This document shows, one piece after another, positions 3-50,160 of a stretch of 64,000 nt of DNA (position 1 is the first letter of the stretch; each line of letters starts with the position of its first letter). Both the position numbers and the translations under genes were made by a program. The notes below the pieces were generated by a model. The model saw nothing but the letters and a program-made list of their open reading frames with translations. It was not told where the DNA came from and searched no databases. The stretch is from Clostridia bacterium (GTDB lineage: Bacteria > Bacillota > Clostridia > TANB77 > CAG-508). Location: NCBI GenBank assembly GCA_022793875.1, contig JAAWDR010000033.1, forward strand, positions 50,137 through 114,136. Direction: 5' to 3'.

Positions 3-782
3 AGCTTTAATAAGAAAAATAGTATAACAATTATAGCAGCTCCAACAGGTGCAGGAAAAACAACAACATTATATAGTTTAATAGACTATTTTAATTCACC
101 AGAAATAAATATAACAACAATTGAAGACCCAGTTGAAATTAGAATTGATGGATTAAATCAAATAGAAATAGGAAATAAATCAACATTTTCAGGAGCACTA
201 AGAACAGTTTTAAGACAAGACCCTGATATGATATTACTAGGAGAAATCCGTGATAAGGAAACAGCTGAAATAGCTATACAGGCTGGACAAACAGGACATT
301 ATGTTTTATCTACAATACATACAATAGATGCAATTGAAGTAATAAACAGAATGAGAAAAATGGGATTATCAGACTATGATATATCAAGTACAGTAGCCAC
401 AACAGTATCACAAAGACTTGTAAGAACAATATGTCCGTATTGTAAAAAAGAAAGAGAATTTACAAAAGAAGAGAAAGAAATAATGTCTAAAATTGCAGAA
501 AAATATGGAGACAAATTAAATTTTGATAATGTAAAAACATATGACGCTATTGGATGCGAAAAATGTGGTAATGTTGGTTATTATGGAAGAATTGGTGTTT
601 TTGAAGTATTAAATATATCAGAAGAAATAAAAGAACTTATTGTAAAAGGAGCATCAACAATTGAAATAAGAGAAAAGGCATTAGAACAAAATTATAGACC
701 ATTAATTATAGATGGAATAAATAAAGTACTAAAAGGTCATACAACATTAGAAGAATTAAACAAACAACTTATTATATATTAA
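3..782 (+). CDS. pilB: Type IV pilus assembly ATPase, PilB/GspE family, C-terminal part (5' end outside window)
   Basis: Frame is open from the window edge. Walker A APTGAGKTTT; C-terminal tetracysteine CPYC..CEKC; directly upstream of pilT and pilC. Confidence 0.85.
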   Translation, partial: SFNKKNSITIIAAPTGAGKTTTLYSLIDYFNSPEINITTIEDPVEIRIDGLNQIEIGNKSTFSGALRTVLRQDPDMILLGEIRDKETAEIAIQAGQTGHYVLSTIHTIDAIEVINRMRKMGLSDYDISSTVATTVSQRLVRTICPYCKKEREFTKEEKEIMSKIAEKYGDKLNFDNVKTYDAIGCEKCGNVGYYGRIGVFEVLNISEEIKELIVKGASTIEIREKALEQNYRPLIIDGINKVLKGHTTLEELNKQLIIY

Positions 783-852: not shown

Positions 853-1956
853 ATGAATATGGACAAAATTTTTGAACAAGCTATAGAAAGAGATGCATCA
901 GATATACATTTAATTGCAGGAAACAAACCAATGCTTAGGATTGCAAGAGAATTAGTACCAGTTGAAGACACAGAAGTTTTAAATGAAAATGATATGAATG
1001 AAATATATGATTACTTAGTTAGAGGAAATATTGATAAAGATGAGATGTTTAATGAAACAAGAAAATTAGATACATCATATGAATATAAACAAATACGTTT
1101 TAGGGTAAACATTTCACTATCAGATGATGTTCCAACATGTACATTAAGACTTATAAAAAACACATTGCCACCATATGAAGCATTAGGTTTACCAGACATT
1201 ATAAAAAGAATGACATTTCAGCCACAAGGATTAATATTAGTAACAGGAAAAACGAACTCTGGTAAAAGTACAACTTTAAATGCTATAATAAATGAGATAA
1301 ATGAAACTCAAAATAAGAAAATATTAACACTTGAAAACCCAGTAGAATATAGACATCATTCAAAAAAATCATTAATAGTGCAAAAAGAAGTTGGAAAAGG
1401 TAGAGATGCATTAACATTTAGTAATGGTGTACAGAACTCTCTAAGAGAAGACTGTGATATATTAGTAATAGGAGAGATTAGAGATAAAGTAACAATGGAA
1501 GCAGCGATAGAAATGGCAGAATCAGGACATTTAGTTATAGGAACATTACACACAAAATCTTGTGCTGAAACAATAGACAGAATGATAAACTTCTATGAAG
1601 TTAGAGACCAAGCAAGTATAAAATACTTATTATCAGCATTATTGAAATTAGTTGTATCACAAAGATTACTAAAAGGAAGAGATGGAAAACTTGTATTAGT
1701 ACCAGAAGTAATGGTTGTAGATAACATAGTATCTGGTATTATAAGAAAAGAAAAAATAAGTGTATCAGAAATAGAGGATGCTATCCAAAGTTCTGATAAA
1801 GGAAGTATTGGATTAATAAATTCAATAGCAACACTATTTGTACAAGATAAAATAACACTAGAACAAGCTAAGGCTCAAGTGGAAGAGAAAAATATTGAAG
1901 TACTAAATAGAACAATAATGCAAATGAAGATAAGAAGAGATAGCAATAAGAATTAA
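853..1956 (+). CDS. pilT: Twitching motility / pilus retraction ATPase PilT
   Basis: Walker A GKTNSGKSTT, PilT-like His/Asp boxes, about 365 aa. RBS GAAGGGAG lies inside the longer 835 ORF, so start 853 is preferred. Confidence 0.88.
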   Translation: MNMDKIFEQAIERDASDIHLIAGNKPMLRIARELVPVEDTEVLNENDMNEIYDYLVRGNIDKDEMFNETRKLDTSYEYKQIRFRVNISLSDDVPTCTLRLIKNTLPPYEALGLPDIIKRMTFQPQGLILVTGKTNSGKSTTLNAIINEINETQNKKILTLENPVEYRHHSKKSLIVQKEVGKGRDALTFSNGVQNSLREDCDILVIGEIRDKVTMEAAIEMAESGHLVIGTLHTKSCAETIDRMINFYEVRDQASIKYLLSALLKLVVSQRLLKGRDGKLVLVPEVMVVDNIVSGIIRKEKISVSEIEDAIQSSDKGSIGLINSIATLFVQDKITLEQAKAQVEEKNIEVLNRTIMQMKIRRDSNKN

Positions 1957-2024: not shown

Positions 2025-3365
2025 ATGCCTATATATTCATATAAGGCTATTACAAGTTCAGGATTAATTGTAAGAAATAGAATAGAATCAGGAAGTAAAC
2101 AAAGTTTGATTAAAACTTTAAAAAGCAATGATTTAATGCCAATTACAGTAGAACAGGTTAAGTATAATAATAAAAACAAAAAGAGTAAAAAGAAAAATGT
2201 AAAAGACATTGAAGAAATAATGAAAAATGTAAATACAACACAAATAAATACTAAAAAAACATTTTCAACAAAAGAAAAAATAAATATGTATTTATCAAAA
2301 ACAGAAAAAATAACAGCTAGAGATATTGTGATATTTACACAAAACTTTTATCTATTGAAAAAGGCAAACTTTAACAATATACATGCATTAAGAACAATAA
2401 TTGATAGTACAGAAAACTATACTTTTAAAGGAATATTAGAAGATATTTTAGCAGGTGTTGAAGCAGGAGAATATATGTATACAACAATGGAATATTATGA
2501 AGATGTATTTCCATTTATATATATAAATATGATTAAAGTTGGTGAATTATCAGGTTCACTTACTAATTCACTAGAACAAGCTGTAAGATATTTGGATGAA
2601 TCAGAAGCATTAAATAAAAAAATTAGAGGAATATTAATTCCTAACTTAATACAATTTGCATTATTAATAGTAATGTTGTTTGTTGGAACATTGGTTGCAA
2701 TACCAGCAATTCAAAATATATATGATGAAATGGGATCAACAGATCAATTACCAGCAATAACATTATGGTTCCAAGGAGTAGTAAACAATTTAATGACATA
2801 TTGGTATATACCATTAACATTTATATTAGCAGTAGTAGGTGCAATAGTATTTTATATTAATACTCCAAAAGGAAAATATAACTTCCACTATTTTAAATAT
2901 AAAATGCCAATATTTGGTCAATTAATATTTGCATTAGATTTTTCAAGATTAATGAAAGCAATGCTTCTAAATCTTGAAAATGGAATGAGAATACAAGAAG
3001 CAATGGAAGTTAGTAAAAATGTTATTAAAAACTATGTAATGTTATCAATAATAGAAACATCATTAAATAACATACTTATAGGTGATTCTTGGATTGAACC
3101 ATTTGAAAGATCAGGATTACCTAAGTCAATGATAACAGAGATGCTTAAAGTAGGTATGCAAACAAACTTACCAGAGATGATGGCAAAATTAGTAGAATAT
3201 ATGGAAATAGATATTGATAATATAATTCAAAAAATAATGAAGGTTTTACCTGAAGTTGTTTACTTAATAGTAGGTTGTGTATTAATTTTCTTCGTACTAG
3301 TTGTACTTGGACCATGTATCGAAGTATATATGGGAGGATGGTTATTCTCAGCAGCAGGTGTATAA
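2025..3365 (+). CDS. pilC: Type IV pilus assembly platform protein PilC (GspF family)
   Basis: GspF-type polytopic membrane protein of about 445 aa following pilB-pilT. AGGAGG RBS at 2011-2016 supports the ATG at 2025 rather than the listed GTG at 2016. Confidence 0.85.
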   Translation: MPIYSYKAITSSGLIVRNRIESGSKQSLIKTLKSNDLMPITVEQVKYNNKNKKSKKKNVKDIEEIMKNVNTTQINTKKTFSTKEKINMYLSKTEKITARDIVIFTQNFYLLKKANFNNIHALRTIIDSTENYTFKGILEDILAGVEAGEYMYTTMEYYEDVFPFIYINMIKVGELSGSLTNSLEQAVRYLDESEALNKKIRGILIPNLIQFALLIVMLFVGTLVAIPAIQNIYDEMGSTDQLPAITLWFQGVVNNLMTYWYIPLTFILAVVGAIVFYINTPKGKYNFHYFKYKMPIFGQLIFALDFSRLMKAMLLNLENGMRIQEAMEVSKNVIKNYVMLSIIETSLNNILIGDSWIEPFERSGLPKSMITEMLKVGMQTNLPEMMAKLVEYMEIDIDNIIQKIMKVLPEVVYLIVGCVLIFFVLVVLGPCIEVYMGGWLFSAAGV

Positions 3366-15662: not shown

Positions 15663-16643
15663 TTGGCAAATAAAGTAGAAAATACAACAAATGATAAAAA
15701 ATTAAATCTTAAAAATGATATAATATTTAAAGCATTTTTTAGTAGAAAAGGAAATGAAAAATTTTTAATAGATTTTTTAAATTCAATATTAAAAATAGAG
15801 ATTTCAAAAATATCAATACAAGAAGAGGTAAATTTAGAACAATTAAGCAAAAAAGAAAAAGGTGGCAGATTAGATATACAAGCAATTCTAAATGATGGAA
15901 TGATAGTCAATATAGAAATGCAAGTGAGAGATTTAAAAAATGTAGAACAGAGAAATGATATTTATGAAGCTAAAACAATATCAAGACATTTTGCAAGAGG
16001 AGAAGATTATAAGAAAGCCAATGAAGTAATTTCAATATATATATTAAATTATAATTTATTTGGATTTGATGACTATATATTAGATACAGTAAAAGTATTG
16101 AATAAATATAGAGAGTATCAAATAAATAGCATAAGTAAAGAATATTATATACAATTACCAAGATTTAGAAAATCAAATCCAGATATGAATAATAAATTAA
16201 ATCAGTGGTTAGCAATAATCGATGATGAAGATAGGGGGAAAATAGAAATGGCAAAGGAGAAAAATGAAGTTATAAAACAGGCAGAAGTGGAAATAACATA
16301 TTTTACAGCAAGTGAAGAAGCAAGATACCTAGCTGATATGAGAGATTTGTGGGAGTCTGATAGAGTAAGTGAATTAAATTATGAAAAAGAAATTGCACAA
16401 AGAGAAGGAAGAGAAAAAGGGATAAAAGAAGGAAGAAAAGAAGGAAGAAAAGAAGGAAGAAAAGAAGGAAGAAAAGAAGGAAGAAAAGAAGGAAGAAAAG
16501 AAGGAAGAAAGGAAGGAAGAAAGGAAGGAATAAAAGAAGGGATAAAAATAACAGCAAAAAAACTTTTAGATAAAAAGATGGATATTAAAGATATTGAAGA
16601 AATAACTGGACTCACAGAAAAAGAAATTAGAGAATTAAAATAA
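15663..16643 (+). CDS. Rpn/YhgA-like PD-(D/E)XK nuclease family protein (Transposase_31 family) with EGRK repeat tail
   Basis: TTG start 7 nt after AGGAGG. N-terminal FKxxF..FLNSIL and D..E.K nuclease core as in Rpn/YhgA proteins. C-terminal (EGRK)x8 low-complexity repeat. Confidence 0.75.
   Translation: MANKVENTTNDKKLNLKNDIIFKAFFSRKGNEKFLIDFLNSILKIEISKISIQEEVNLEQLSKKEKGGRLDIQAILNDGMIVNIEMQVRDLKNVEQRNDIYEAKTISRHFARGEDYKKANEVISIYILNYNLFGFDDYILDTVKVLNKYREYQINSISKEYYIQLPRFRKSNPDMNNKLNQWLAIIDDEDRGKIEMAKEKNEVIKQAEVEITYFTASEEARYLADMRDLWESDRVSELNYEKEIAQREGREKGIKEGRKEGRKEGRKEGRKEGRKEGRKEGRKEGRKEGIKEGIKITAKKLLDKKMDIKDIEEITGLTEKEIRELK
16433..16528 (+). repeat. Intragenic 12-bp tandem repeat GAAGGAAGAAAA x8 (EGRK x8)
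   Basis: Eight head-to-tail 12-nt units (the last two carry an A to G change), flanked by degenerate copies. Confidence 0.9.
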
Positions 16644-16764: not shown

Positions 16765-17721
16765 ATGGGAATTTCATTTCAGGAATTTAGCACAGCAATG
16801 AAAACTTATCAGGCTATAAGAATACTTGGACAGAAAGGTTCACGGTGGAATATACCTGTTCCATGTTTTAATGTAGCAGGAATTGATTTTCGGCATTCTG
16901 GTTCATACTATATTGTTCAGCGTGGAGGTAAAGCTCCAGAAGAAATTATGAATAGAGCAATGGCAGAATTTGGAGAGATATATCCAGGAGGAGATAATTT
17001 TTGGTATGGAGAAATACACTCAGTTAGAGGGATTTTGACCTTAGTTTCAATGCTTGAAGGTAAGTATACCAAAGAGCTGGTTAATCAACTTACTAATGAG
17101 ACATATAGAAAACTTCTTAGTTCTCCATTAATTAAAGGAAATGCAAAATTACCTTTTAAGAAAGCATCTATTAGCCAAAAGTGGAAAGAGTTTTATAAAT
17201 TAGTTCTTGAACATGATAGGATTGCAAATCCTTTTTGCAAAAATACAGATTTATTAAAAAATCCAAGTGAGTATTTGGATAAAGTAAATATTTCAATTGC
17301 TTTTGACAAAAATATTGATATTGCAAGTAGTGTTAAATTTGGTTTAAAAAACAAAAATTCATGTACAGATTTTGGGGATAATGCAGAAGGATGGTATTAT
17401 CATACCAATGGTTGGAATGACTCTGAAAAAGGCGAAGAGAGTGGATATACTTCAATGGGACATTATTACAGTAATGGCGTTAATAAACAGCCTATTGATG
17501 AAGTTGTTTACCTTTATCACACAACAGGTGGTGGTTATAAGGAACGTCTTGGAGATGTTGATTTAAGAATTAGTTTGATGACAGGCTTGGCATGGAAAAC
17601 TTATAAAGAAGAAGAGGCAAAACCAGTTACAGATAAGCAACTCGAAGTAATGATACACCATTTAAAAAGGAATATTGAAAGAGCAAAAATTACTATTCTT
17701 GATGAAATGGTAAAAAAATAA
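16765..17721 (+). CDS. Hypothetical protein (318 aa), locally GC-richer, likely horizontally acquired
   Basis: Codon usage (CAG, CTG, CGG) differs from the surrounding genes. A GGAGG RBS is present and a strong bidirectional terminator lies at 17736-17775. Confidence 0.55.
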   Translation: MGISFQEFSTAMKTYQAIRILGQKGSRWNIPVPCFNVAGIDFRHSGSYYIVQRGGKAPEEIMNRAMAEFGEIYPGGDNFWYGEIHSVRGILTLVSMLEGKYTKELVNQLTNETYRKLLSSPLIKGNAKLPFKKASISQKWKEFYKLVLEHDRIANPFCKNTDLLKNPSEYLDKVNISIAFDKNIDIASSVKFGLKNKNSCTDFGDNAEGWYYHTNGWNDSEKGEESGYTSMGHYYSNGVNKQPIDEVVYLYHTTGGGYKERLGDVDLRISLMTGLAWKTYKEEEAKPVTDKQLEVMIHHLKRNIERAKITILDEMVKK

Positions 17722-17780: not shown

Positions 17781-18503
17781 TTATAATTTTAAACTACTAT
17801 CTAAAGCAAGTCTAATCATATTATTTAAACCACTTTGTCTTTCTTCAGGAGTAGCAACATCTTTAATAAATTTAGAATCAACTACACTCATTAAACAAGC
17901 AGCATTTTTATTTAATAACTTAGCATTATAAAATAAAGCAAAAGCTTCCATTTCAGCAGAAACTGGGTTAAAATCAGTTGGAACTCTTTCTAAGAATTTG
18001 TTAACATCAGTCATATACAAATCAAAACAATCAGTGCAAACAGTATTCCCAACAGTTAAATTACAATTAAGTTCTTTGGCTGTATCTTTTATAATAGTAT
18101 TTAAACTATTGCTAGAATTTACAATATGACAATTATCATTATTCAATGTTAAAGCATAATTACTTTCAGAAAATACATTTTCACTTAAAATTATATCAAA
18201 TAATTTTAGTTCAGGTAGATATCCTCCACAAGAACCAATTCTAATAATATTTTCTACATCATAAAATTTATATAATTCATAACTGTATATTCCAACACTT
18301 GGCATTCCCATACCATGTGCCATTACTGTTAATTGTTTTCCTTTATATGTTCCTGTATATGCATACATTCCTCTAACACTGTTTACAAGCTTATAATCTT
18401 CAAAAAAGTTTTCTACTATATATTTTGCCCTTAAGGGGTCTCCAGGCATTATTACTGTTTTTGCAATTTCTCCTTTATTGGCTTCATTATGTGGTGTTGA
18501 CAT
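17781..18503 (-). CDS. deoD: Purine nucleoside phosphorylase (DeoD-type, PNP/UDP family 1)
   Basis: MAHGMGMPSVGIYSYEL and RIGSCGG motifs. Start placed at the MSTPH ATG, preceded by AAAGGAGGAAA; the listed ORF begins upstream of the RBS. Confidence 0.85.
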   Translation of the reverse strand: MSTPHNEANKGEIAKTVIMPGDPLRAKYIVENFFEDYKLVNSVRGMYAYTGTYKGKQLTVMAHGMGMPSVGIYSYELYKFYDVENIIRIGSCGGYLPELKLFDIILSENVFSESNYALTLNNDNCHIVNSSNSLNTIIKDTAKELNCNLTVGNTVCTDCFDLYMTDVNKFLERVPTDFNPVSAEMEAFALFYNAKLLNKNAACLMSVVDSKFIKDVATPEERQSGLNNMIRLALDSSLKL

Positions 18504-18633
18504 ATAAATTTCCTCCTTTTTATTTTTTATAATTATATTATAAGAATTAATAAAATGCAAATGAAAAAAAATCTAAAAATTCTAAAATTAAAGTTCCAAA
18601 AAACAAAATTAAAAAATAGAAAAGAAATATGAA

Positions 18634-18676
18634 TTATGTAAAAAAGTGCACAATAAAAAAGTGTACTTTTATTGTC
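18634..18676 (+). promoter_or_regulatory. Copy 2 of the conserved TTATGTAAAAAAGTGCAC..hairpin..TTTTATTGT element
   Basis: Near-identical over about 43 nt to the copy at 19857. Contains extended -10-like TATGTAAAAAA and the stem GCACAATAAAA/TTTTATTGT(G)C. Lies in the divergent deoD/pilin intergenic region. Confidence 0.45.
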
Positions 18677-18707
18677 TTTAAAAAAAATTAAATATAAAAT
18701 TAAACAG

Positions 18708-18772
18708 TATTGACATTTGAGTAAACAAAATATAAAATAATATTAGAATGACACAAATGTCAATAGTATAAT
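18708..18772 (+). promoter_or_regulatory. Pilin promoter region: a perfect 12-bp inverted repeat bracketing tandem promoter motifs
   Basis: TATTGACATTTG (18708-18719) and its reverse complement CAAATGTCAATA (18754-18765). TTGACA-17-TAAAAT and TTAGAA-18-TATAAT lie within it. 45-105 nt upstream of the pilin-like gene at 18815. Confidence 0.5.
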
Positions 18773-18814
18773 CTATAAAAAAATTCACAAAATAAACAAA
18801 AGAAGGAGAAAAAT

Positions 18815-19327
18815 ATGAAAAAGATTCAAAAAAACAATAAAGGAATAACACTAGTGGCATTAGTGATTACAATAATAATTTTGTTAATTTTAGCAGGAAT
18901 AACAATTAATTCATTAACAGGAAGTGGATTATTTAAAAAAGCAGAATTAGCAAAAGAAGAAACTTTAATTGCACAATACAAGGAAAAAATAGAGCTAATA
19001 AAAACAGAAACAAGATTATCTTACAATGGCGAAATAACATTAGAAAGATTAAATACAGCATTTAATGATTCTAAGCAAAGAGACTGGGTTAATGAAAGTA
19101 TAGAAGATAAAAATATAAATAAAATAAAATTAACAACAAATGATGGATTTATATTTTATATAACAGATGGAACAATAGAATACAAAGGAACAGGAGATGT
19201 TACAATACCAGAAATTATTACAGCAGAAATGGTCGAATTTATACCATCAGATAACACATGGAAAGCAAAAGATGGAACAGAGATAACAAATGTTAAACAA
19301 GCATTAGATTACTTATATGATAACTAA
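18815..19327 (+). CDS. Pilin-like protein with prepilin-type N-terminal helix (non-canonical Ala at +5)
   Basis: KG|ITLVALVITIIILLILAGI resembles a class III signal peptide plus hydrophobic helix, with no Glu at +5. The N-terminal 40 aa are almost identical to the ORF at 19954. Strong RBS. Confidence 0.65.
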   Translation: MKKIQKNNKGITLVALVITIIILLILAGITINSLTGSGLFKKAELAKEETLIAQYKEKIELIKTETRLSYNGEITLERLNTAFNDSKQRDWVNESIEDKNINKIKLTTNDGFIFYITDGTIEYKGTGDVTIPEIITAEMVEFIPSDNTWKAKDGTEITNVKQALDYLYDN

Positions 19328-19350
19328 AATAAATGAAGGAGAAAATTAAA

Positions 19351-19815
19351 ATGAAATTTGTAAAGAAAAATATTAAATTAATAATAGGAATAATAGTAGG
19401 AACATTATTAGTAAGTGGAATAAGTGTATATGCTACTTACACATATTTTGCTAACGAAATAAAATATACAGATGATAAAAGCGTAGCAGATGCTTTAAAT
19501 GATTTGTATAGTATAAAAACAGAAAATTTAAGCTTAAAATCACAAATTGAAGAGTTACAAAAAAAAATTGAAATTGTTTCTTATAAAGGAAATGTTAGTA
19601 ATGGAACTACAATAAATGTTGAGGTTGGTAATTATGTGTTTGTATCTTCTCCTGCTAATTCTTATGCTACAAATTCAAAAACATTAATAAGTGGTCTTAA
19701 TGGAGGAAGTTATAATGGGATAGGAACTTACACATGTGTATTTGAGGCAACTGCTTCAACTATGAAAATTACTCCACAGAACAATTGTAATTTTTCATAT
19801 ATTATAGTAAAGTAA
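19351..19815 (+). CDS. Small secreted/membrane-anchored protein between the two pilin-like genes
   Basis: AAGGAG RBS then ATG 19351. N-terminal KK + hydrophobic segment IIGIIVGTLLVSGISVYA. About 154 aa. Confidence 0.5.
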   Translation: MKFVKKNIKLIIGIIVGTLLVSGISVYATYTYFANEIKYTDDKSVADALNDLYSIKTENLSLKSQIEELQKKIEIVSYKGNVSNGTTINVEVGNYVFVSSPANSYATNSKTLISGLNGGSYNGIGTYTCVFEATASTMKITPQNNCNFSYIIVK

Positions 19816-19856
19816 TGAAATCTTATTATTCAATTAATTACAATAAAAGTTAAATA

Positions 19857-19900
19857 TTATGTAAAAAAGTGCACAATAAAAAAGTGTACTTTTATTGTGC
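19857..19900 (+). promoter_or_regulatory. Copy 3 of the conserved TTATGTAAAAAAGTGCAC..hairpin..TTTTATTGTGC element
   Basis: Perfect 11-bp stem GCACAATAAAA/TTTTATTGTGC with loop AAGTGTAC, 55 nt upstream of the pilin-like gene at 19954. Confidence 0.45.
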
Positions 19901-19953
19901 TTATAAATAAGAAAATATATAATTAATAAAAACGAAAGAAGGGGAGAATAGAA

Positions 19954-20487
19954 ATGAAAGAAAAATTAGAAATAAACAAAGGAATAACACTGGTTGCATT
20001 AGTAATCACAATCATAATTTTATTAATTTTAGCAGGAATATCAATATCAAGTTTAACAGGAAGTGGGTTATTTAAAAGAACAGAAGATGCAAAGGAAAGT
20101 TATGAAGAGGCAGAAAATAAAGAGAATTCAATATTAGGAGAATATGAAAATTATATTGATAATTTAGGAAAAGATGATAACATAATTAATTTTACTTTAG
20201 ATGGAGCAAAGTATTCTTGTGAAAAAGGAACAAAATGGAATGAGTTTGCAGATAACAATTTAAAAGGAACAACATATGGAGTTGATATTTATAGTGAAAA
20301 GGAATTTTTAATTTGGGCAGACTCAAATACATGGACTGGAGAAAATGCAGTGCCAATAAAGGCAACATATATTTTAAAAGATGGAAACAAGGTAAGTTTT
20401 TATGATGAAATATGTAATGGAGAATATTTTAAAGAAGGAAAATTTGAATTAGAAGTGTATATAAATCAAATTTATTTAAAAATGTGA
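19954..20487 (+). CDS. Second pilin-like paralog (same N-terminal helix, divergent C-terminal domain)
   Basis: MKEKLEINKGITLVALVITIIILLILAGISISSLTGSGLFK is close to identical to the 18815 product over the first about 45 aa, then unrelated. GGGGAG RBS. Confidence 0.65.
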   Translation: MKEKLEINKGITLVALVITIIILLILAGISISSLTGSGLFKRTEDAKESYEEAENKENSILGEYENYIDNLGKDDNIINFTLDGAKYSCEKGTKWNEFADNNLKGTTYGVDIYSEKEFLIWADSNTWTGENAVPIKATYILKDGNKVSFYDEICNGEYFKEGKFELEVYINQIYLKM

Positions 20488-20628
20488 TAGATTATAAGTA
20501 TGCAGGATATAAAAATATATCCTGTATTTATTTTCGCAAAATTATTGCTAAAAATCATAATTTGTGATATAAAATAAAATGTAAAAAAGTATATAAGCTA
20601 AATAACCAAAGAACAGAGGTGGAAAAAA

Positions 20629-23388: not shown

Positions 23389-23676
23389 ATGAAATTCGGA
23401 TTAACAGAAGAAATATATAATTTAATAAAACAAGTAATAAAAAATAATCCAGAATATAAATTCAAAATATTTGGCTCAAGAGCAAAAGGAACATATAAAA
23501 ATACTTCTGATATAGATTTAGCAATATTTGAAGATGTAAATAAGAATGATGAATTTAAAATAAGAAATGAAATAGATATGCTAGATATTGTATATAAAAT
23601 TGATTTAGTATTTGTAAACAAAGATACAAAAAAAGAACTATTAGAATCTATAAAAATGGAAGGAGTTGATTTCTAG
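23389..23676 (+). CDS. Nucleotidyltransferase (MNT, HI0073-like), antitoxin-like partner
   Basis: GSRAKGTYKNTSDIDLAIF = GS-x9-DxD minimal NTase motif; 95 aa; overlaps the next ORF by 1 nt. Confidence 0.8.
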   Translation: MKFGLTEEIYNLIKQVIKNNPEYKFKIFGSRAKGTYKNTSDIDLAIFEDVNKNDEFKIRNEIDMLDIVYKIDLVFVNKDTKKELLESIKMEGVDF

Positions 23677-24065
23677 TGAAAAGGTTTGAAGAGAGAAGAG
23701 AAGATTTAAATAAGGCAACTAATAGATTAGAAGAAGCTTTAGAAGTAGAAACAACAGACATAGCGATAGATGGAGTGTTACACAGATTTGAATTTACATT
23801 TGAACTAGCATGGAAAACAATGAAAGACTATTTAGAGTATCAAGGAATAGTAGAAAAGATAGGAAGTCCAAGAGAAGTTATAAAAGAAGCATTTTCAGCA
23901 GGATTAATAGATAATGGAGAAATATGGATAAAAATGATGATTTCAAGAAATACATTATCACATTTATATGACGAAGAAACTTCAAGAGAAATATATGATG
24001 ACATAAAAGAAGAGTATATTAGTGAAATAAGAAAACTTAACGAAAAGCTCTTCCAATTTATGTAA
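23676..24065 (+). CDS. HI0074-family nucleotidyltransferase substrate-binding / HEPN-like (HepT-type) protein
   Basis: 129 aa. GTG start overlapping the MNT stop (TAGTG). Similar to the HI0074 family; conserved R..H region. Confidence 0.75.
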   Translation: MKRFEERREDLNKATNRLEEALEVETTDIAIDGVLHRFEFTFELAWKTMKDYLEYQGIVEKIGSPREVIKEAFSAGLIDNGEIWIKMMISRNTLSHLYDEETSREIYDDIKEEYISEIRKLNEKLFQFM

Positions 24066-45832: not shown

Positions 45833-46552
45833 GTGAGTATAAGTGGAGTAAATAAATACAGTTTCGCTGAAGTTAACACTGTAGATAAATTAAGTCCAGC
45901 TGATACTACTATAAATAAAAGAACATTAAAACAACAAATAGAAAAAATAATAAAAAGAATAATAGATGTTTGTGGTGGTTTAGTAGGTGTAATTACTTTA
46001 ATACCACTAACTATTATAATATATATAGCAAATATAATAGCAAAAGATAAAGGACCAGTATTCTATTCTCAACAAAGAATAGGAAAAGATGGAAAAATAT
46101 TTAAAATGTACAAGTATAGATCAATGATAGTAGGTGCAGATAAAATATTAGAAAGATACTTAGAAGAAAATGAAAACGCAAAAAAAGAGTATAAAGAATA
46201 TAAAAAATTAAAAAATGATCCAAGAGTAACAAAAATTGGTAATTTTATTAGAAAAACTAGTTTAGATGAATTTCCACAATTTATAAATGTTTTAAAAGGT
46301 GATATGAGTTTGGTTGGACCTAGACCATATTTACCAAGAGAAAAAGAAGATATGGGAAAATATTATACATATATAATCGAATCTAAGCCAGGAATTACAG
46401 GATTTTGGCAAATTGCTGGTAGAAGCGATGTTACTTTTGAAGATAGATTGAAAATGGATTATAATTATAATCAAAATAAAAGTTTAAAAACAGATATGAA
46501 ATTATTAATAAAAACAGTTATAAATGTGGCTAAAAAAGAAGGAGCGATATAA
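45833..46552 (+). CDS. Undecaprenyl-phosphate sugar phosphotransferase (bacterial sugar transferase, initiating enzyme)
   Basis: PF02397-type C-terminal domain: GPVFYSQQRIGKDGKIFKMYKYRSM ... PQFINVLKGDMSLVGPRP. GTG start after GGGGGG. Confidence 0.85.
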   Translation: MSISGVNKYSFAEVNTVDKLSPADTTINKRTLKQQIEKIIKRIIDVCGGLVGVITLIPLTIIIYIANIIAKDKGPVFYSQQRIGKDGKIFKMYKYRSMIVGADKILERYLEENENAKKEYKEYKKLKNDPRVTKIGNFIRKTSLDEFPQFINVLKGDMSLVGPRPYLPREKEDMGKYYTYIIESKPGITGFWQIAGRSDVTFEDRLKMDYNYNQNKSLKTDMKLLIKTVINVAKKEGAI

Positions 46553-46558
46553 GTAAAA

Positions 46559-47017
46559 ATGAAAAGACAAAAACCAAGAATATGTTTAGTATCCTCATCA
46601 GGGGGGCATTGGGAACAATTGCAAAAATTACAACCATTAATAGACAAATATGATGGATTTTTTGTGACTGAAAAAACTCAATTTGAAGCAAATGCTAAAT
46701 ATTTTATGAAACAAACAGATTTAAAAGATAAACTAATGCCAATAAAAATGATATACAATGCAATTAAGACATTAATAATTTGGATAAAGGAAAGACCGGA
46801 TTTCGTAATAACTACAGGAACAATGGTTGCATATCCATTTTATTTATTAGCAATATTATTTCATAAGAAGTTTATATTTATAGAGACTTTTGGTAGGGCA
46901 AATATGCCAACAGTTGCTGGAAAGAAAATGGAAAAACATTCAGACTTGTTTATAGTTCAATGGGAAACTCAAAAAAAATTTTATAAAAAAGCTATTTATG
47001 GGGGGTGTTTATATTGA
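46559..47017 (+). CDS. Alg14-like glycosyltransferase membrane subunit (EpsE/Cps14F-type)
   Basis: CLVSSSGGHWEQ motif typical of Alg14/PssD; 152 aa. Confidence 0.8.
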   Translation: MKRQKPRICLVSSSGGHWEQLQKLQPLIDKYDGFFVTEKTQFEANAKYFMKQTDLKDKLMPIKMIYNAIKTLIIWIKERPDFVITTGTMVAYPFYLLAILFHKKFIFIETFGRANMPTVAGKKMEKHSDLFIVQWETQKKFYKKAIYGGCLY

Positions 47018-47514
47018 TTTTTGTATGTGTAGGATCAAGGAACTACCCTTTTGACAGGTTATTTAAAAAGTTAGATGAATTATGTGATGATGAAATTATA
47101 AAAGAAGATATATTTGCGCAAATAGGAACATCAACATATAAACCTAAAAACTTTAAATATAAAGATTTTATTTCACAAGAAGAGTTTATAGAAAAAGTAA
47201 AAGAATCAGATATAGTTATCAGTCATGGAGCATCAGGCTCTATTATGAAAGCTTTAAATGCAGGTAAAAAAGTTATAGCAGTAACGAGGCTTGAAAAATA
47301 TGGAGAGCATATCAATGATCATCAAATACAAAATAATGAAGCTTTTGCATCAAATGGATATGTATTGCCTGTATATGAAATGGGCGAATTAAAAGAGGCT
47401 ATACAAAAGATTTATGATGGGACAGATGATTTGGTGCCTTGGGAGAATAAAGATCCGATGGCAATTGTTAATCTGATAGATAAGTTTATACAAGAGAATT
47501 GGGAGAAGAAATAA
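47005..47514 (+). CDS. Alg13-like glycosyltransferase catalytic subunit (EpsF/Cps14G-type, GT28 C-terminal domain)
   Basis: VCVGSRNYPFDRL motif; 169 aa; overlaps its neighbours. Confidence 0.8.
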   Translation: MFILIFVCVGSRNYPFDRLFKKLDELCDDEIIKEDIFAQIGTSTYKPKNFKYKDFISQEEFIEKVKESDIVISHGASGSIMKALNAGKKVIAVTRLEKYGEHINDHQIQNNEAFASNGYVLPVYEMGELKEAIQKIYDGTDDLVPWENKDPMAIVNLIDKFIQENWEKK

Positions 47515-48373
47515 TGGATAAAAAAGCAGTACTAAAAAAAATCAAATATACCTTAAGAGTTTTGCCAGATAAAGTATATATAAAATTATATTATTTTGCT
47601 CAATTTAAAAAGAAATGTAATTTAAGAAATCCACAAACATTTAACGAAAAATTAAATTGGCTTAAATTACATGATAGAAATCCTAATTACGTTAATATGG
47701 TAGATAAGTTTGAAGCAAAGAAATATGCATCGGACATAATAGGAGAAGAATATATAATACCGACTATTGGAGTATGGGATAAATTTGAAGATATTGATTT
47801 TAATAGATTACCTAAACAATTTGTTTTAAAATGTACACATGATTCTGAAGGAGTAGTAATAGTAAAAAATAAAGAGAATTTTAATAAAAAAGAAGCAAAA
47901 AAGAAAATAGAAAAAGCGATGAAATATAATTTTTACTATATTGGAAGAGAGTGGCCATATAAAGTGATAAAACCTAGAATAATTGCTGAACAATATATGG
48001 AAGATCATGTTGATGGTGAATTAAGAGATTATAAATTTTTTTGTTTCGATGGAGAACCAAAGGCAATGTTTATTGCAACAGATAGAAGTAAGGGAAAAAC
48101 AAAGTTTGACTACTTTGATTTAGAATTTAATCATTTAGATATAAAGCAACATTACCCAAACTCAAAAGAACAAATTAGAAAACCAAAAAATTTTGAAAAA
48201 TGATTGAATTATCAAGAAAATTGTCAAAAGGATTGAAACACGTAAGAATTGATTTTTATGAGGTTGATGGAAAATTATATTTTGGGGAAATAACATTTTA
48301 TCATTTTAGCGGATTCCAACCGTTTATTCCAGAAAAATGGGATATGACATTTGGTGATTGGCTACATATTTAA
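47514..48373 (+). pseudogene. TupA-like ATP-grasp protein split by a -1 frame change at an A5 tract (48196-48203)
   Basis: Part 1 ends ..KPKNFEK then TGA. Part 2 (48200-48373) MIELSRKLSKGLKHVRIDFYEVDGKLYFGEITFYHFSG.. is the conserved C-terminus. The stop and start overlap as ATGA. Confidence 0.65.
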
Positions 48374-48403
48374 ATGCAATGACTAAAAAGGAGAAAAAAA
48401 CAA

Positions 48404-49501
48404 GTGAAAGTACTATATATATTACCAAAAGGATTATTCATAGAAGGAATTTCCGCTATTGTATTAAATTATTTTCATAATATAGATGAAAATAAAATTA
48501 GCATCGATTTTGTTGTGCCTTTTGTAATTCCAAGTATTGAAAAGGCAATAAAAGATAAAGGTAGAAAAATATATTTGATACAGGGAAGAAAGAAGAATCC
48601 ATTTAAGTATATAAAAGAGTTAACCAGAGTAATAAAAGAAGGAGAATATGATGCAGTTCATGCTCATGGAAGCAGTGCAATGATATGTATTGAGATGATA
48701 GCTGCAAAAAGAGCAGGATGTAAAATAAGAATTGCACATAGCCATAATACAAAGACTGATCACAAGGTTCTAGACAAAATTTTAAGACCAATATTGTATA
48801 AAACTTATACAAATGGATTTGCGTGTGGAAAAGAAGCGGGAAAATGGTTATTTAAAAAAAGAAAATTTGAAATAATAAACAATGGAAAGAATATAGAAGA
48901 ATATGAATATAATTCAAAAATCAGACAAGAGGTTAGAAAAAAATACAATCTGTCAGAAAAAATAGTTATAGGACATGTAGGTGGATTTAATTATCAAAAA
49001 AATCACGAATATTTACTAGATATATTTTATCAATTAAATGCAATAAATAAAAATAAGTATGCATTGATTTTGATAGGCGATGGCAAATTAAGACTTCAAA
49101 TAGAAGAAAAAGCAAAGAGATTAGGCATATTTGATAATATTATTTTTACAGGTAATACCTCAAAAGTTTCTGAATGGTTGCAGGCAATGGACATAATGGT
49201 ATTGCCATCAAGATTTGAAGGATTTCCAAATGTAGTAGTAGAATGGCAGCTATCAGGATTACCATGTTTGATATCAGATAAAATAACAAAGGATGTTAAA
49301 CTAACAAGATTAGTTGAATTTGCTTCAATTGATGTAGAACCAAAAAAATGGGCCAAAAAAATAGAAAAAATAAAAAGTGAAGACAGAGAAAGTAGCAAAA
49401 AAGAAATATATAAGGATATAAAAGAAAAGGGATTTGACATAAAAGAAAATGCAAAAAAATTAGAAAGAATTTATATGCAATTATATAAAGGAGTTAACTA
49501 A
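48404..49501 (+). CDS. Glycosyltransferase family 4 (GT-B)
   Basis: EGFPNVVVEWQLSGLPCLISD GT4 signature; GTG start after AAAAGGAG; 365 aa. Confidence 0.85.
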   Translation: MKVLYILPKGLFIEGISAIVLNYFHNIDENKISIDFVVPFVIPSIEKAIKDKGRKIYLIQGRKKNPFKYIKELTRVIKEGEYDAVHAHGSSAMICIEMIAAKRAGCKIRIAHSHNTKTDHKVLDKILRPILYKTYTNGFACGKEAGKWLFKKRKFEIINNGKNIEEYEYNSKIRQEVRKKYNLSEKIVIGHVGGFNYQKNHEYLLDIFYQLNAINKNKYALILIGDGKLRLQIEEKAKRLGIFDNIIFTGNTSKVSEWLQAMDIMVLPSRFEGFPNVVVEWQLSGLPCLISDKITKDVKLTRLVEFASIDVEPKKWAKKIEKIKSEDRESSKKEIYKDIKEKGFDIKENAKKLERIYMQLYKGVN

Positions 49502-49509
49502 ATAATAGT

Positions 49510-50145
49510 ATGAATTATGAAACAATTAGACTGAAATTAAGAAAATGTTATATAAAGTTCACATATAAAAAAAGAAGAAAAAAAATAAATTGTAGCGATT
49601 TTACAATAATATCTAACAATTGTTGGGGAGGAACTGTGTACCAAAGCTATGGATTAAGATATAACACGCCAACAGTAGGACTATATTTCATGGCTGAAGA
49701 TTATATAAAATTTATATATAACATAAAAGAGTATTTGAAATTTGATTTGGAGTTCATAGATTTTAGTGAATCTAAAAAAGCAAAACTTACAGGAGAAAAG
49801 CATAGTTATCCAGTAGGAAAGTTGCATGATATAGAGATATATTTTATGCACTATAAATCAAAAGAAGAAGCAAAGAAAAAATGGAATAGAAGAAAAAATA
49901 GAATAAATTGGAATAAAATTATATTTAAATTTTCTAATCAAAATTTTTGTAATAAAGAAAATATAGAACAATTCTTAAAGTTGTCAGAGAAACATAAAAT
50001 TTGTTTTGTTAATAATAAACAATATAACGTTGAAGGTACTATTTTTGTAAAACAATTAAATAGATCTAATGACATTAAAGCATCATATGAGCCGTTTGGA
50101 AATAATAAACAAATTAATATAAATAAATTTATAAATAATTTATAA
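49510..50145 (+). CDS. DUF1919-like exopolysaccharide-locus protein
   Basis: IISNNCWGG motif; 211 aa; embedded in the capsule locus. Confidence 0.55.
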   Translation: MNYETIRLKLRKCYIKFTYKKRRKKINCSDFTIISNNCWGGTVYQSYGLRYNTPTVGLYFMAEDYIKFIYNIKEYLKFDLEFIDFSESKKAKLTGEKHSYPVGKLHDIEIYFMHYKSKEEAKKKWNRRKNRINWNKIIFKFSNQNFCNKENIEQFLKLSEKHKICFVNNKQYNVEGTIFVKQLNRSNDIKASYEPFGNNKQININKFINNL

Positions 50146-50160
50146 AAACAGGAGAAAAAC

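Follow-up and report, generated by a model that had tools for sequence, protein, structure and literature searches.

Genes 1 and 3 of the 64,000-nucleotide stretch of Clostridia bacterium DNA analyzed here (contig JAAWDR010000033.1; the whole stretch is called the window below), taken from a metagenome-assembled genome (MAG), probably encode type IV pilins with an accessory (minor or 'modular') role in a divergent pilus system whose genes lie 15 kb upstream. Both predicted proteins open with a short leader that ends in Lys-Gly and continues directly into the same hydrophobic segment, ITLVALVITIIILLILAGI, in which Ala and not Glu occupies position +5. Glutamate at this position (Glu5) is almost universal in bacterial type IV pilins. 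An earlier reading of this DNA, made from the letters alone and referred to here as the sequence-only reading, had called the two products pilin-like and had pointed to the Ala at +5 after the Lys-Gly. Both calls are borne out: the window itself encodes PilB, PilT, and PilC 15 kb upstream of the two genes, and the pilin of that cluster carries the same N-terminus. Ala5 is no peculiarity of the two paralogs; it is the rule in a very large protein family, referred to below as the Ala5 family.

Two pilin-like proteins and a putative secreted partner

The locus is made up of the following features.

18633-18703, plus strand: upstream module copy 1, a 43-nt hairpin element and a weak promoter-like site (TTGTCT-17-TAAAAT)
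About 18704-18787, plus strand: 84-nt insert upstream of gene 1, absent before gene 3, holding an inverted repeat and the strongest promoter-like site
18815-19327, plus strand: gene 1, an intact open reading frame (ORF) of 170 residues (aa) with a Shine-Dalgarno site, for an Ala5 type IV pilin-like protein
19351-19815 (alternative start 19333), plus strand: gene 2, an ORF for a small protein with a putative Sec-type signal and then a coiled segment
19856-19926, plus strand: upstream module copy 2, the same hairpin element followed by TTGTGC-17-TATAAT, 40 nt past the gene 2 stop codon
19954-20487, plus strand: gene 3, an intact ORF of 177 aa with a Shine-Dalgarno site, for an Ala5 type IV pilin-like protein
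20500-20537, plus strand: terminator-like hairpin and T-run downstream of gene 3, predicted by consensus scan

The three genes are co-directional and are flanked on one side by a gene for purine nucleoside phosphorylase in divergent orientation (17781-18503, minus strand) and on the other by an stp-prkC pair (20629 onward). The gene 1 product runs from its leader (MKKIQKNNKG) through the hydrophobic alpha1N segment into a long helix, a four-stranded sheet, and a C-terminal motif, 'AEMVEF..NVKQALDYLY'. The gene 3 product has the leader MKEKLEINKG and the same start of alpha1N; its ~70 N-terminal residues resemble a 69-aa pilin of the upstream cluster, and the remainder is beta-rich. A BLASTP alignment of the two products is limited to residues 1-57, where 41 of 57 are identical. 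Residues K9-I29 (KGITLVALVITIIILLILAGI) are identical, and residues 9-48 agree at 35 of 40 positions; the shared start after Lys-Gly described by the sequence-only reading therefore stands, and its figure of 40 identical N-terminal residues does not. The same reading had described the C-terminal parts as unrelated, which holds at the sequence level, BLASTP detecting no similarity there. No Pfam domain is recognized in the C-terminal part of either protein; in gene 1, an inserted sheet domain and the C-terminal motif extend beyond the pilin module.

The order of predicted secondary structure in the AlphaFold2 (AF2) models of both proteins fits a pilin. The gene 1 model, with a predicted local distance difference test score (pLDDT) of 80, places a helix at residues 9-69, followed by a second, short helix, by four strands within residues 92-126, and by a small helical motif at the C-terminus. 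The gene 3 model places a helix at residues 9-72 and then a beta-rich domain. Among NCBIfam models, those of PpdD, GspG, ComGE, and PilA match the genes weakly. The best matches of gene 1 among Protein Data Bank (PDB) sequences are pilin N-termini, led by 9egp and 7tgg (Geobacter PilA-N), in which FTLIEL is aligned with ITLVAL; all are non-significant. A PHROGs search returned weak matches to families of unknown function and nothing else. Compared trait by trait with type IV pilins, the two proteins possess a leader with Gly at -1, an alpha1N of about 20 hydrophobic residues, and linkage to genes for PilB, PilC, and a PilD-like protein; they lack Glu at +5 and a score at the cut-off of the Pfam N_methyl profile.

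Between them lies gene 2, whose Sec-type signal was read by eye, without a signal-peptide predictor. Homologs of gene 2, 36-42% identical, are found 3' of gene 1 orthologs in three of the related loci (L005, L095, and L097; L numbers denote related loci throughout), and gene 2 is, judged from this recurrent placement, a putative conserved and secreted downstream partner of gene 1-type pilins. The C-terminus of gene 1 (19216-19324) reads ITAEMVEFIPSDNTW..ITNVKQALDYLYDN, a motif that sits directly on the pilin helix in many family members of ~105 aa, and a look-alike, ANEIKYTDDKSVADALNDLY, occurs in gene 2 just past the signal peptide (19435-19515). The motif shared by genes 1 and 2 may be a docking motif between both proteins.

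A type IV pilus cluster encodes a pilin with the same N-terminus

The pilus cluster was found by grouping the neighbors of family genes in 80 related genome loci, where genes for prepilin-peptidase-like, PilT-like, PilB-like, and PilM-like proteins stand beside short family members. Its last three genes lie at the start of the window; the contig upstream of the window was read from L092, which is the same JGI contig as L002, and from the near-identical L091 and L093. The order in this organism is rsmB, a 534-aa PilM/N-like fusion, a 231-aa PilO-like protein, a 134-aa membrane protein, the 69-aa pilin, a 268-aa PilD-like protein, two minor pilin-like genes, PilB, PilT, and PilC. The genes referred to by position are the following.

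3-782, plus strand: pilB, pilus assembly ATPase, an open frame from base 3 that covers the C-terminal 259 residues only (Pfam T2SSE, 9.6e-48)
853-1956, plus strand: pilT-like ATPase, 367 aa (Pfam T2SSE, 1.5e-43)
2025-3365, plus strand: pilC platform protein, 446 aa (Pfam T2SSF, 7.6e-29)
L091:6179-6985, on this organism's contig shortly before the window begins: PilD-like gene with an A24_N_bact domain
L091:7011-7433, L064:11437-11880, L054:11886-12302, and L072:2483-2929: minor pilin-like genes with Asp in the motif at +5

The start of pilB lies before the window, and its Walker A motif is APTGAGKTT. Identity to the corresponding cluster genes of L064 and L054 amounts to 67-68% for PilB, 69-83% for PilT, and 65-75% for PilC. 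In the L064 cluster, Pfam and NCBIfam recognize T2SSE twice (PilB with an MshEN domain; PilT), GspF/PilC, A24_N_bact, and, weakly, PilN, the PilC homolog there matching the GspF and PilC models of NCBIfam. The same cluster is present in four further loci from other MAGs, some of them partly covered (L054, L059, L064, and L072).

The 69-aa cluster pilin (MKSQKG, then ITLVALVITIIILLILAGISIASLTGSGMFQKAQ...) has the Ala5 N-terminus and a mature length of 63 residues, essentially one helix. With 22.7 bits it passes the curated cut-off of Pfam PF07963 N_methyl, which is 21.2 bits. Gene 3 is 64% identical to this pilin across all 69 residues and, as the match spans the whole of it, corresponds to the cluster pilin plus ~105 extra residues; gene 1 is 80% identical to it over 41 residues. 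The clusters contain one to three pilins each, of 69-180 aa and all with Ala5. In addition, one minor pilin-like protein of the clusters always has Asp at +5 (KGIAAID, KGITIID, KGFTGID, KGFTTAD), and the other minor pilin has Ser or Thr there. An Asp5 minor pilin beside Ala5 main pilins reverses the usual pattern, namely one tip pilin without an acidic residue.

The prepilin peptidase candidate of the cluster is divergent. The PilD-like protein shares with its top 120 relatives, at 67-100% identity, a Pfam match limited to the N-terminal A24_N_bact domain, with both CxxC pairs (four Cys) present; its relatives include a protein from Clostridium sp. CAG:470. Acidic residues conserved in the PilD-like protein are D126 (in SGIDKE), E128, E155, D176, and E205 (in FTGEY). 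Alignment of the family with P. aeruginosa PilD reached the N-terminal domain alone, and a PDB sequence search with the PilD-like protein gave zinc-finger noise and nothing else.

The Ala5 family

Homology searches returned 1359 homologs for gene 1 and about 1,300 proteins for gene 3. A profile built from short members matched 32,389 of 1.84 billion cluster representatives at E <= 1e-3 and 23,244 at E <= 1e-10, these being counts of clusters at 50% identity. Motif statistics were taken from 336 retrieved relatives with the motif intact and, as a second set, from 116 copies in the 80 best genome loci. Across the 336 relatives the motif is K-G followed by I-T-L-[IV]-A-L-V-I-T-I. Position +5 is Ala in 317, Ser in 11, Val in 5, Thr in 2, and Gly in 1, Glu and Asp being absent; position -1 is occupied by Gly (319) or Ala (17), and position +1 by Ile in 335. 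The copies in genome loci agree (Ala5 in 114 of 116; Lys before the Gly in 72 of 116), and the nearest upstream Met mostly lies 5-12 residues from Gly-1.

Each of G-1, I+1, T+2, L+3, A+5, and T+9 is more than 94% conserved over hundreds of otherwise unrelated proteins, and conservation reaches ~45 residues into the protein, ~25 past the hydrophobic core. We infer cleavage after Gly-1 because Gly or Ala at -1 is kept so strictly among these proteins. Gly or Ala at -1 is the sole absolute requirement of prepilin peptidases; Glu5 is needed for homopolymer assembly in model systems and is dispensable for cleavage (PMC4471445).

All 80 best genome loci come from MAGs of uncultured 'Clostridia' or 'Clostridium sp.' from the gut of human, mouse, rabbit, chicken, and sheep, and a canonical Glu5 prepilin motif occurs nowhere in these 80 loci (1.1 Mb). 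The family genes are mostly scattered among housekeeping genes, with tandem arrays of two or three in 30 of the 80 loci. At least four copies are present in this MAG: gene 1, gene 3, the cluster pilin, and HFJ60_01945. Members range from ~100 to ~1,500 aa, with a median mature length of ~375 aa and a maximum of 1480 aa. Pfam recognizes 29 families on 90 members, among them FGE-sulfatase (9), LRR_5 (8), dockerin (4), DUF285 (3), and fn3 (3); F5/8 type C, alkaline phosphatase, RCC1, and Big_2 domains are found as well, and the leucine-rich repeats (LRRs) are of the BspA type.

N_methyl at E <= 1e-3 is reached by 17 of the same 90 members, and automated annotation at times labels family members pseudopilins. 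Since most members score at or below the Pfam cut-off, pilin censuses based on N_methyl probably miss most Ala5 proteins. A tblastn search of phage and plasmid collections with the consensus N-terminus gave no match, although the low-complexity filter may have masked the query. IMG/VR yields merely 12 loci, and the family is therefore not phage-borne. The motif strings were not found in any paper of the literature searched. The Ala5 pilins constitute a very large and apparently undescribed family from uncultured gut Clostridia.

A model for genes 1 and 3 and its competitors

As accessory pilins, the products of genes 1 and 3 would each be inserted into the membrane by way of a class III-type N-terminus, and the short basic leader would be removed after the conserved Gly by the PilD-like enzyme of the cluster. 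The alpha1N segment, near-identical to that of the 69-aa pilin (identical from K-G through the first 21 residues, with substitutions beyond), would allow the protein to join, prime, or cap a filament built by PilB, PilC, and PilM-N-O and retracted by PilT. Two different C-terminal domains would then be displayed outside the cell, with the gene 2 product as a secreted partner of gene 1. Ala5 would be a lineage-wide trait, not a defect, and assembly would proceed without the salt bridge between Glu5 and the N-terminus, as in many archaeal pili. Upstream, the duplicated 71-nt module would combine a hairpin, acting as terminator, insulator, or protein-binding palindrome, with a weak promoter and would travel with the pilin gene, and gene 1 would have gained an additional strong promoter on its 84-nt insert.

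Several observations weigh against this assignment. Glu5, a defining trait of bacterial pilins, is absent from genes 1 and 3, and Glu5 mutants in model systems are cleaved, yet unable to homopolymerize (PMC4471445). Gene 1 reaches 20.9 bits with the N_methyl profile, just under the cut-off, and gene 3 reaches 13.4 bits. The AF2 model of gene 3 is of low confidence (pLDDT 68), and a Foldseek comparison of both models with the PDB gave nothing significant, pilins included (none at E < 0.9 for gene 1 and none at E < 0.06 for gene 3). A Peptidase_A24 domain was not detected in the PilD-like protein or its top 120 relatives, even at E <= 1; D126 looks like the first catalytic Asp, and the 'GE' of FTGEY presumably stands at the place of GxGD. 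Many family members are 400-1500 aa long and hard to place in a filament except at its tip. Finally, pilus machinery, sought by tblastn with the organism's own PilB, PilT, PilC, PilD, and PilM/N sequences, lies within 10 kb of family genes in 5 of the 80 loci and is absent within that distance from 75.

The length of the members and their distance from pilus genes lead to the best-surviving alternative, in which the Ala5 N-terminus is still processed by the pilus machinery and serves mainly as a pilin-derived signal for general sorting and anchoring, with genes 1 and 3 as cargo. Dozens of enzymes and adhesins per genome would be displayed on short pseudopilus stubs or as membrane-anchored monomers, not on long pili. 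Analogous cases are archaeal proteins with class III signal peptides, among them the sugar-binding proteins of Sulfolobus, and the pseudopili of type II secretion. The sheer size of the family (32,389 cluster representatives at E <= 1e-3 and 23,244 at 1e-10), the median mature length of ~375 aa with members up to 1480 aa, a cargo of alkaline phosphatase, FGE-sulfatase, and dockerin domains, the dispersal of 75 of the 80 loci among housekeeping genes, and the four or more copies in this MAG all speak for such a signal, and loss of Glu5 is expected where homopolymerization is unneeded. For the large family members, family size, cargo, and dispersal indeed favor the display-tag variant. As an account of genes 1 and 3, however, we regard it as rather unlikely: the two proteins are small and carry no recognizable enzyme or adhesin domain, the short in-cluster pilins (69-180 aa) share Ala5, so that Ala5 fails to separate cargo from filament subunits, and the PilT-type retraction ATPase kept in the cluster argues for dynamic filaments.

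A second alternative would make the N-terminus an ordinary Sec signal peptide, which signal peptidase I would cut behind the hydrophobic segment, for instance after AGISIS or SIA, or an uncleaved anchor, the likeness to a prepilin being historical only. The basic n-region, the hydrophobic core of ~20 residues, and the small residues at S-I-A or S-I-S suit this explanation, as do the absence of Glu5, the lack of a recognizable peptidase domain in the PilD-like protein, and the location of most family genes far from pilus genes. Sec signals, however, are not conserved residue by residue, whereas six positions here exceed 94% conservation; moreover, this conservation extends ~25 residues past the hydrophobic core, and the identical module forms the N-terminus of pilins inside pilus clusters. 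We consider a plain Sec signal or anchor very improbable.

Comparison with known systems

The comparison class for the accessory pilins proposed here is the type IVa pili of Gram-positive Clostridia, represented by PilA of C. perfringens and C. difficile together with PilB, PilC, PilD, PilM-N-O, and PilT. Genes 1 and 3 share with clostridial type IVa pilins a short basic leader ending in Gly, T-L at +2/+3, an alpha1N of ~20 residues, and a long N-terminal helix, and the cluster shares with theirs PilM/N/O-like proteins, pilins, PilD, minor pilins, PilB, PilT, and PilC. In contrast to those systems, the main pilins here have Ala instead of Glu at +5 and Ile instead of Phe at +1, no A24 peptidase domain is detectable in the PilD-like protein, and the family shows a huge expansion outside the cluster.

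Minor pilins that lack Glu5 (GspK of type II secretion; PilX-type and ComGF-type proteins) are thought to sit at the filament tip, where there is no partner N-terminus to neutralize. Genes 1 and 3 resemble these proteins in having no acidic residue at +5. The GspK-type proteins, however, are single specialized subunits beside a Glu5 major pilin, whereas in the present system the presumed major pilin is also Ala5 and one minor pilin is Asp5.

The modular minor pilins PilB and PilC of S. sanguinis consist of a pilin module and an unrelated functional C-terminal module, and a tip location has been proposed for them (Raynaud et al., 2021; PMC8179133). The Ala5 family is built likewise, an N-terminal pilin module being joined to a distinct C-terminal module with LRR, fn3, lectin-like, or enzyme domains; unlike the S. 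sanguinis proteins, genes 1 and 3 carry small modules without a known domain. S. sanguinis PilB is reported with a canonical class III signal peptide, the accompanying census used IPR012902, and the text makes no mention of Glu5 (PMC8179133). Ala5 proteins were probably missed by that census.

In archaeal type IV pilins Glu5 is often absent, and class III signals are also found on surface proteins that do not form filaments (PMC4471445). The present system differs from the archaeal ones in its bacterial A24_N_bact enzyme, its PilB/PilT/PilC/PilM machinery, and a Gly-1 as strictly kept as in bacteria. The organism's cluster pilin, with 63 mature residues, is short like Geobacter PilA-N, which in contrast keeps Glu5 (FTLIEL), and no PilA-C partner is evident here.

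The TANB77 Tad-type cluster is the only published pilus work on uncultured gut Clostridia found in the literature. In that work, pilus genes are conserved in an uncultured low-GC gut Clostridia clade, and several small genes for 'pilin-like proteins' have their own promoters (Kim et al., 2024; PMC11680825). That cluster encodes CpaB, TadZ/CpaE, CpaF/TadA, and TadB/C, whereas the one described here encodes PilB, PilT, PilC, and PilD. Overall, the Ala5 system resembles a Gram-positive type IVa pilus with modular minor pilins, Glu5 being missing in the presumed major and the accessory pilins.

Upstream elements

The sequence-only reading had noticed one 43-nt element before both pilin genes, and the two copies (18633-18675 and 19856-19898) are indeed identical at 43 of 43 positions, the likeness extending to 64 of 71 over 71 nt. 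Shuffles of the window contained no match as good as the 43-nt repeat. The element is composed of an A-run, a stem GTGCAC..GTGTAC, and a T-run, with an alternative stem GCACAATAAAA..TTTTATTGTGC (fold z-scores of -3.1 to -3.5), and its 3' end overlaps the weak promoter-like site, TTGTCT/TTGTGC-17-TAAAAT/TATAAT. Of the two strands, only the minus strand is called terminator-like (19900-19871) by a consensus scan; read in the plus direction, UUUUAUUGU comes after the stem GUGCAC/GUGUAC. Of the 35 identical codons in the neighboring N-terminal coding region, 10 show synonymous differences. The non-coding block is thus better conserved than silent sites, which implies either constraint on the block or very local gene conversion, and the duplicated element appears to be under constraint.

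In L094, a different neighborhood, an ortholog of gene 1 with 88% identity retains the block, which there follows immediately on the stop codon of a gene in the same direction. Both stem arms are changed there, from GTGCAC/GTGTAC to GTGCAT/ATGCAC, and changes on both arms, in what amounts to only two independent versions, are no more than suggestive of a structure. A search of 1.33 Mb of related loci for the 43-nt element with <= 6 substitutions recovered this organism's copies only, the L094 variant being recovered by alignment; a metagenome scan for the element gave 0 matches, and no Rfam family reached its gathering score in the window. The k-mers enriched upstream of 103 family genes in other MAGs are the ribosome-binding site and, weakly, 'ATGTAAAAA', which precedes 8 of these genes against 1.3 expected, an excess that is probably not significant once multiple testing is taken into account. 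Upstream of stp (20572-20590), the 5' part of the 43-nt element (AAATAAAATGTAAAAAAGT) occurs once more.

The 84-nt insert contains a perfect 12-bp inverted repeat, TATTGACATTTG (18708-18719) and CAAATGTCAATA (18754-18765), with 34 nt between the arms. The accompanying promoter, likewise named by the sequence-only reading, is the best sigma-70-like site of the region (TTGACA-17-TAAAAT, 18710-18738, 11/12), and its -35 box lies inside the left arm; a mirror image, TTGACA-18-TATTTT (18763-18734), is present on the minus strand. Folded as RNA, the repeat reaches -15.6 kcal/mol (z = -4.2), a value equaled in 0/200 shuffles. Its expected conservation in relatives is found at close range, the repeat being identical in four strain-level contigs, but not farther out: neither the 88% ortholog in L094 nor more distant orthologs have it upstream, which weakens the idea of an operator. 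Possible roles of the repeat are those of an operator, of a stem-loop at the 5' end of transcripts begun at the weak upstream promoter, or of two face-to-face -35 boxes. The segment has the same orientation in five assemblies (the window and L001-L004).

Pilin variation, with the shared 5' module as a recombination substrate for swaps of C-terminal cassettes or the 12-bp repeat as an invertible promoter switch, would suit paralogs in tandem whose 5' parts are conserved and whose 3' parts differ, a 43-nt block without a single mismatch, a promoter flanked by inverted repeats, and the arrays of two to three family genes in 30/80 loci, but it deserves hardly any credence, given that both genes are complete with start codon, ribosome-binding site, and promoter-like sites, that silent partial copies were not found, that the 5' coding parts differ at synonymous sites and hence underwent no recent gene conversion, that the inverted-repeat unit is just 58 bp and has one orientation in five independent assemblies, that the flanks hold no invertase or recombinase gene, and that the repeat is absent from orthologs. 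The two specific forms considered, Neisseria pilE/pilS-type silent-cassette variation (no promoterless partial copies; both genes complete) and the invertible promoter switch (same orientation in the window and L001-L004; no recombinase in the flanks; 58-bp unit), are not supported. Nor is the 'cassette-like diversification' suggested earlier, each gene having its own ribosome-binding site and promoter-like sites and each C-terminal type having orthologs in other genomes, at unrelated positions.

Other features of the window

Further features of the window were recorded. At 15663-16643 lies a gene for an Rpn-type member of the PD-(D/E)XK 'transposase' family (PDDEXK_2), in which EGRK repeats follow one another close to the C-terminus; next to it is a 318-aa ORF (16765-17721) with no Pfam or PHROG match. 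Between prkC and rsgA, a nucleotidyltransferase gene is followed by a gene for an NTase-substrate-binding (HEPN-like) protein (23389-24065), a pair that, from its predicted products, looks like a toxin-antitoxin-type module. A polysaccharide biosynthesis cluster (45833-58455) encodes a sugar transferase, Alg14/Alg13-like proteins, a TupA-like ATP-grasp protein, GT4 glycosyltransferases, a Wzy-like polymerase, a flippase, and an acetyltransferase.

Implications

Beyond the assignment of genes 1 and 3, it is possible, although we advance this only tentatively and with more doubt than confidence, that this clade rebuilt type IV pilus biology on an Ala5 N-terminus, coupled to a GxGD-less relative of prepilin peptidases, as a general tag for export and display that would serve much of the surface proteome, adhesins, dockerin proteins, and enzymes among it. 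If true, this would constitute a third route of surface display in monoderm bacteria, besides sortase and lipoproteins, and a natural experiment on the Glu5-free assembly of a bacterial type IV filament. A natural and widespread Ala5 system, comprising cluster pilins and dispersed paralogs, offers a direct way to ask what purpose Glu5 serves. The divergent PilD-like enzyme provides a second lead, namely for the mechanism of intramembrane proteases. The family also marks a blind spot, in that censuses relying on N_methyl probably overlook it. Given its adhesin-type and enzyme domains, the Ala5 family likely shapes the contact of these poorly known gut bacteria with their surroundings and their host.

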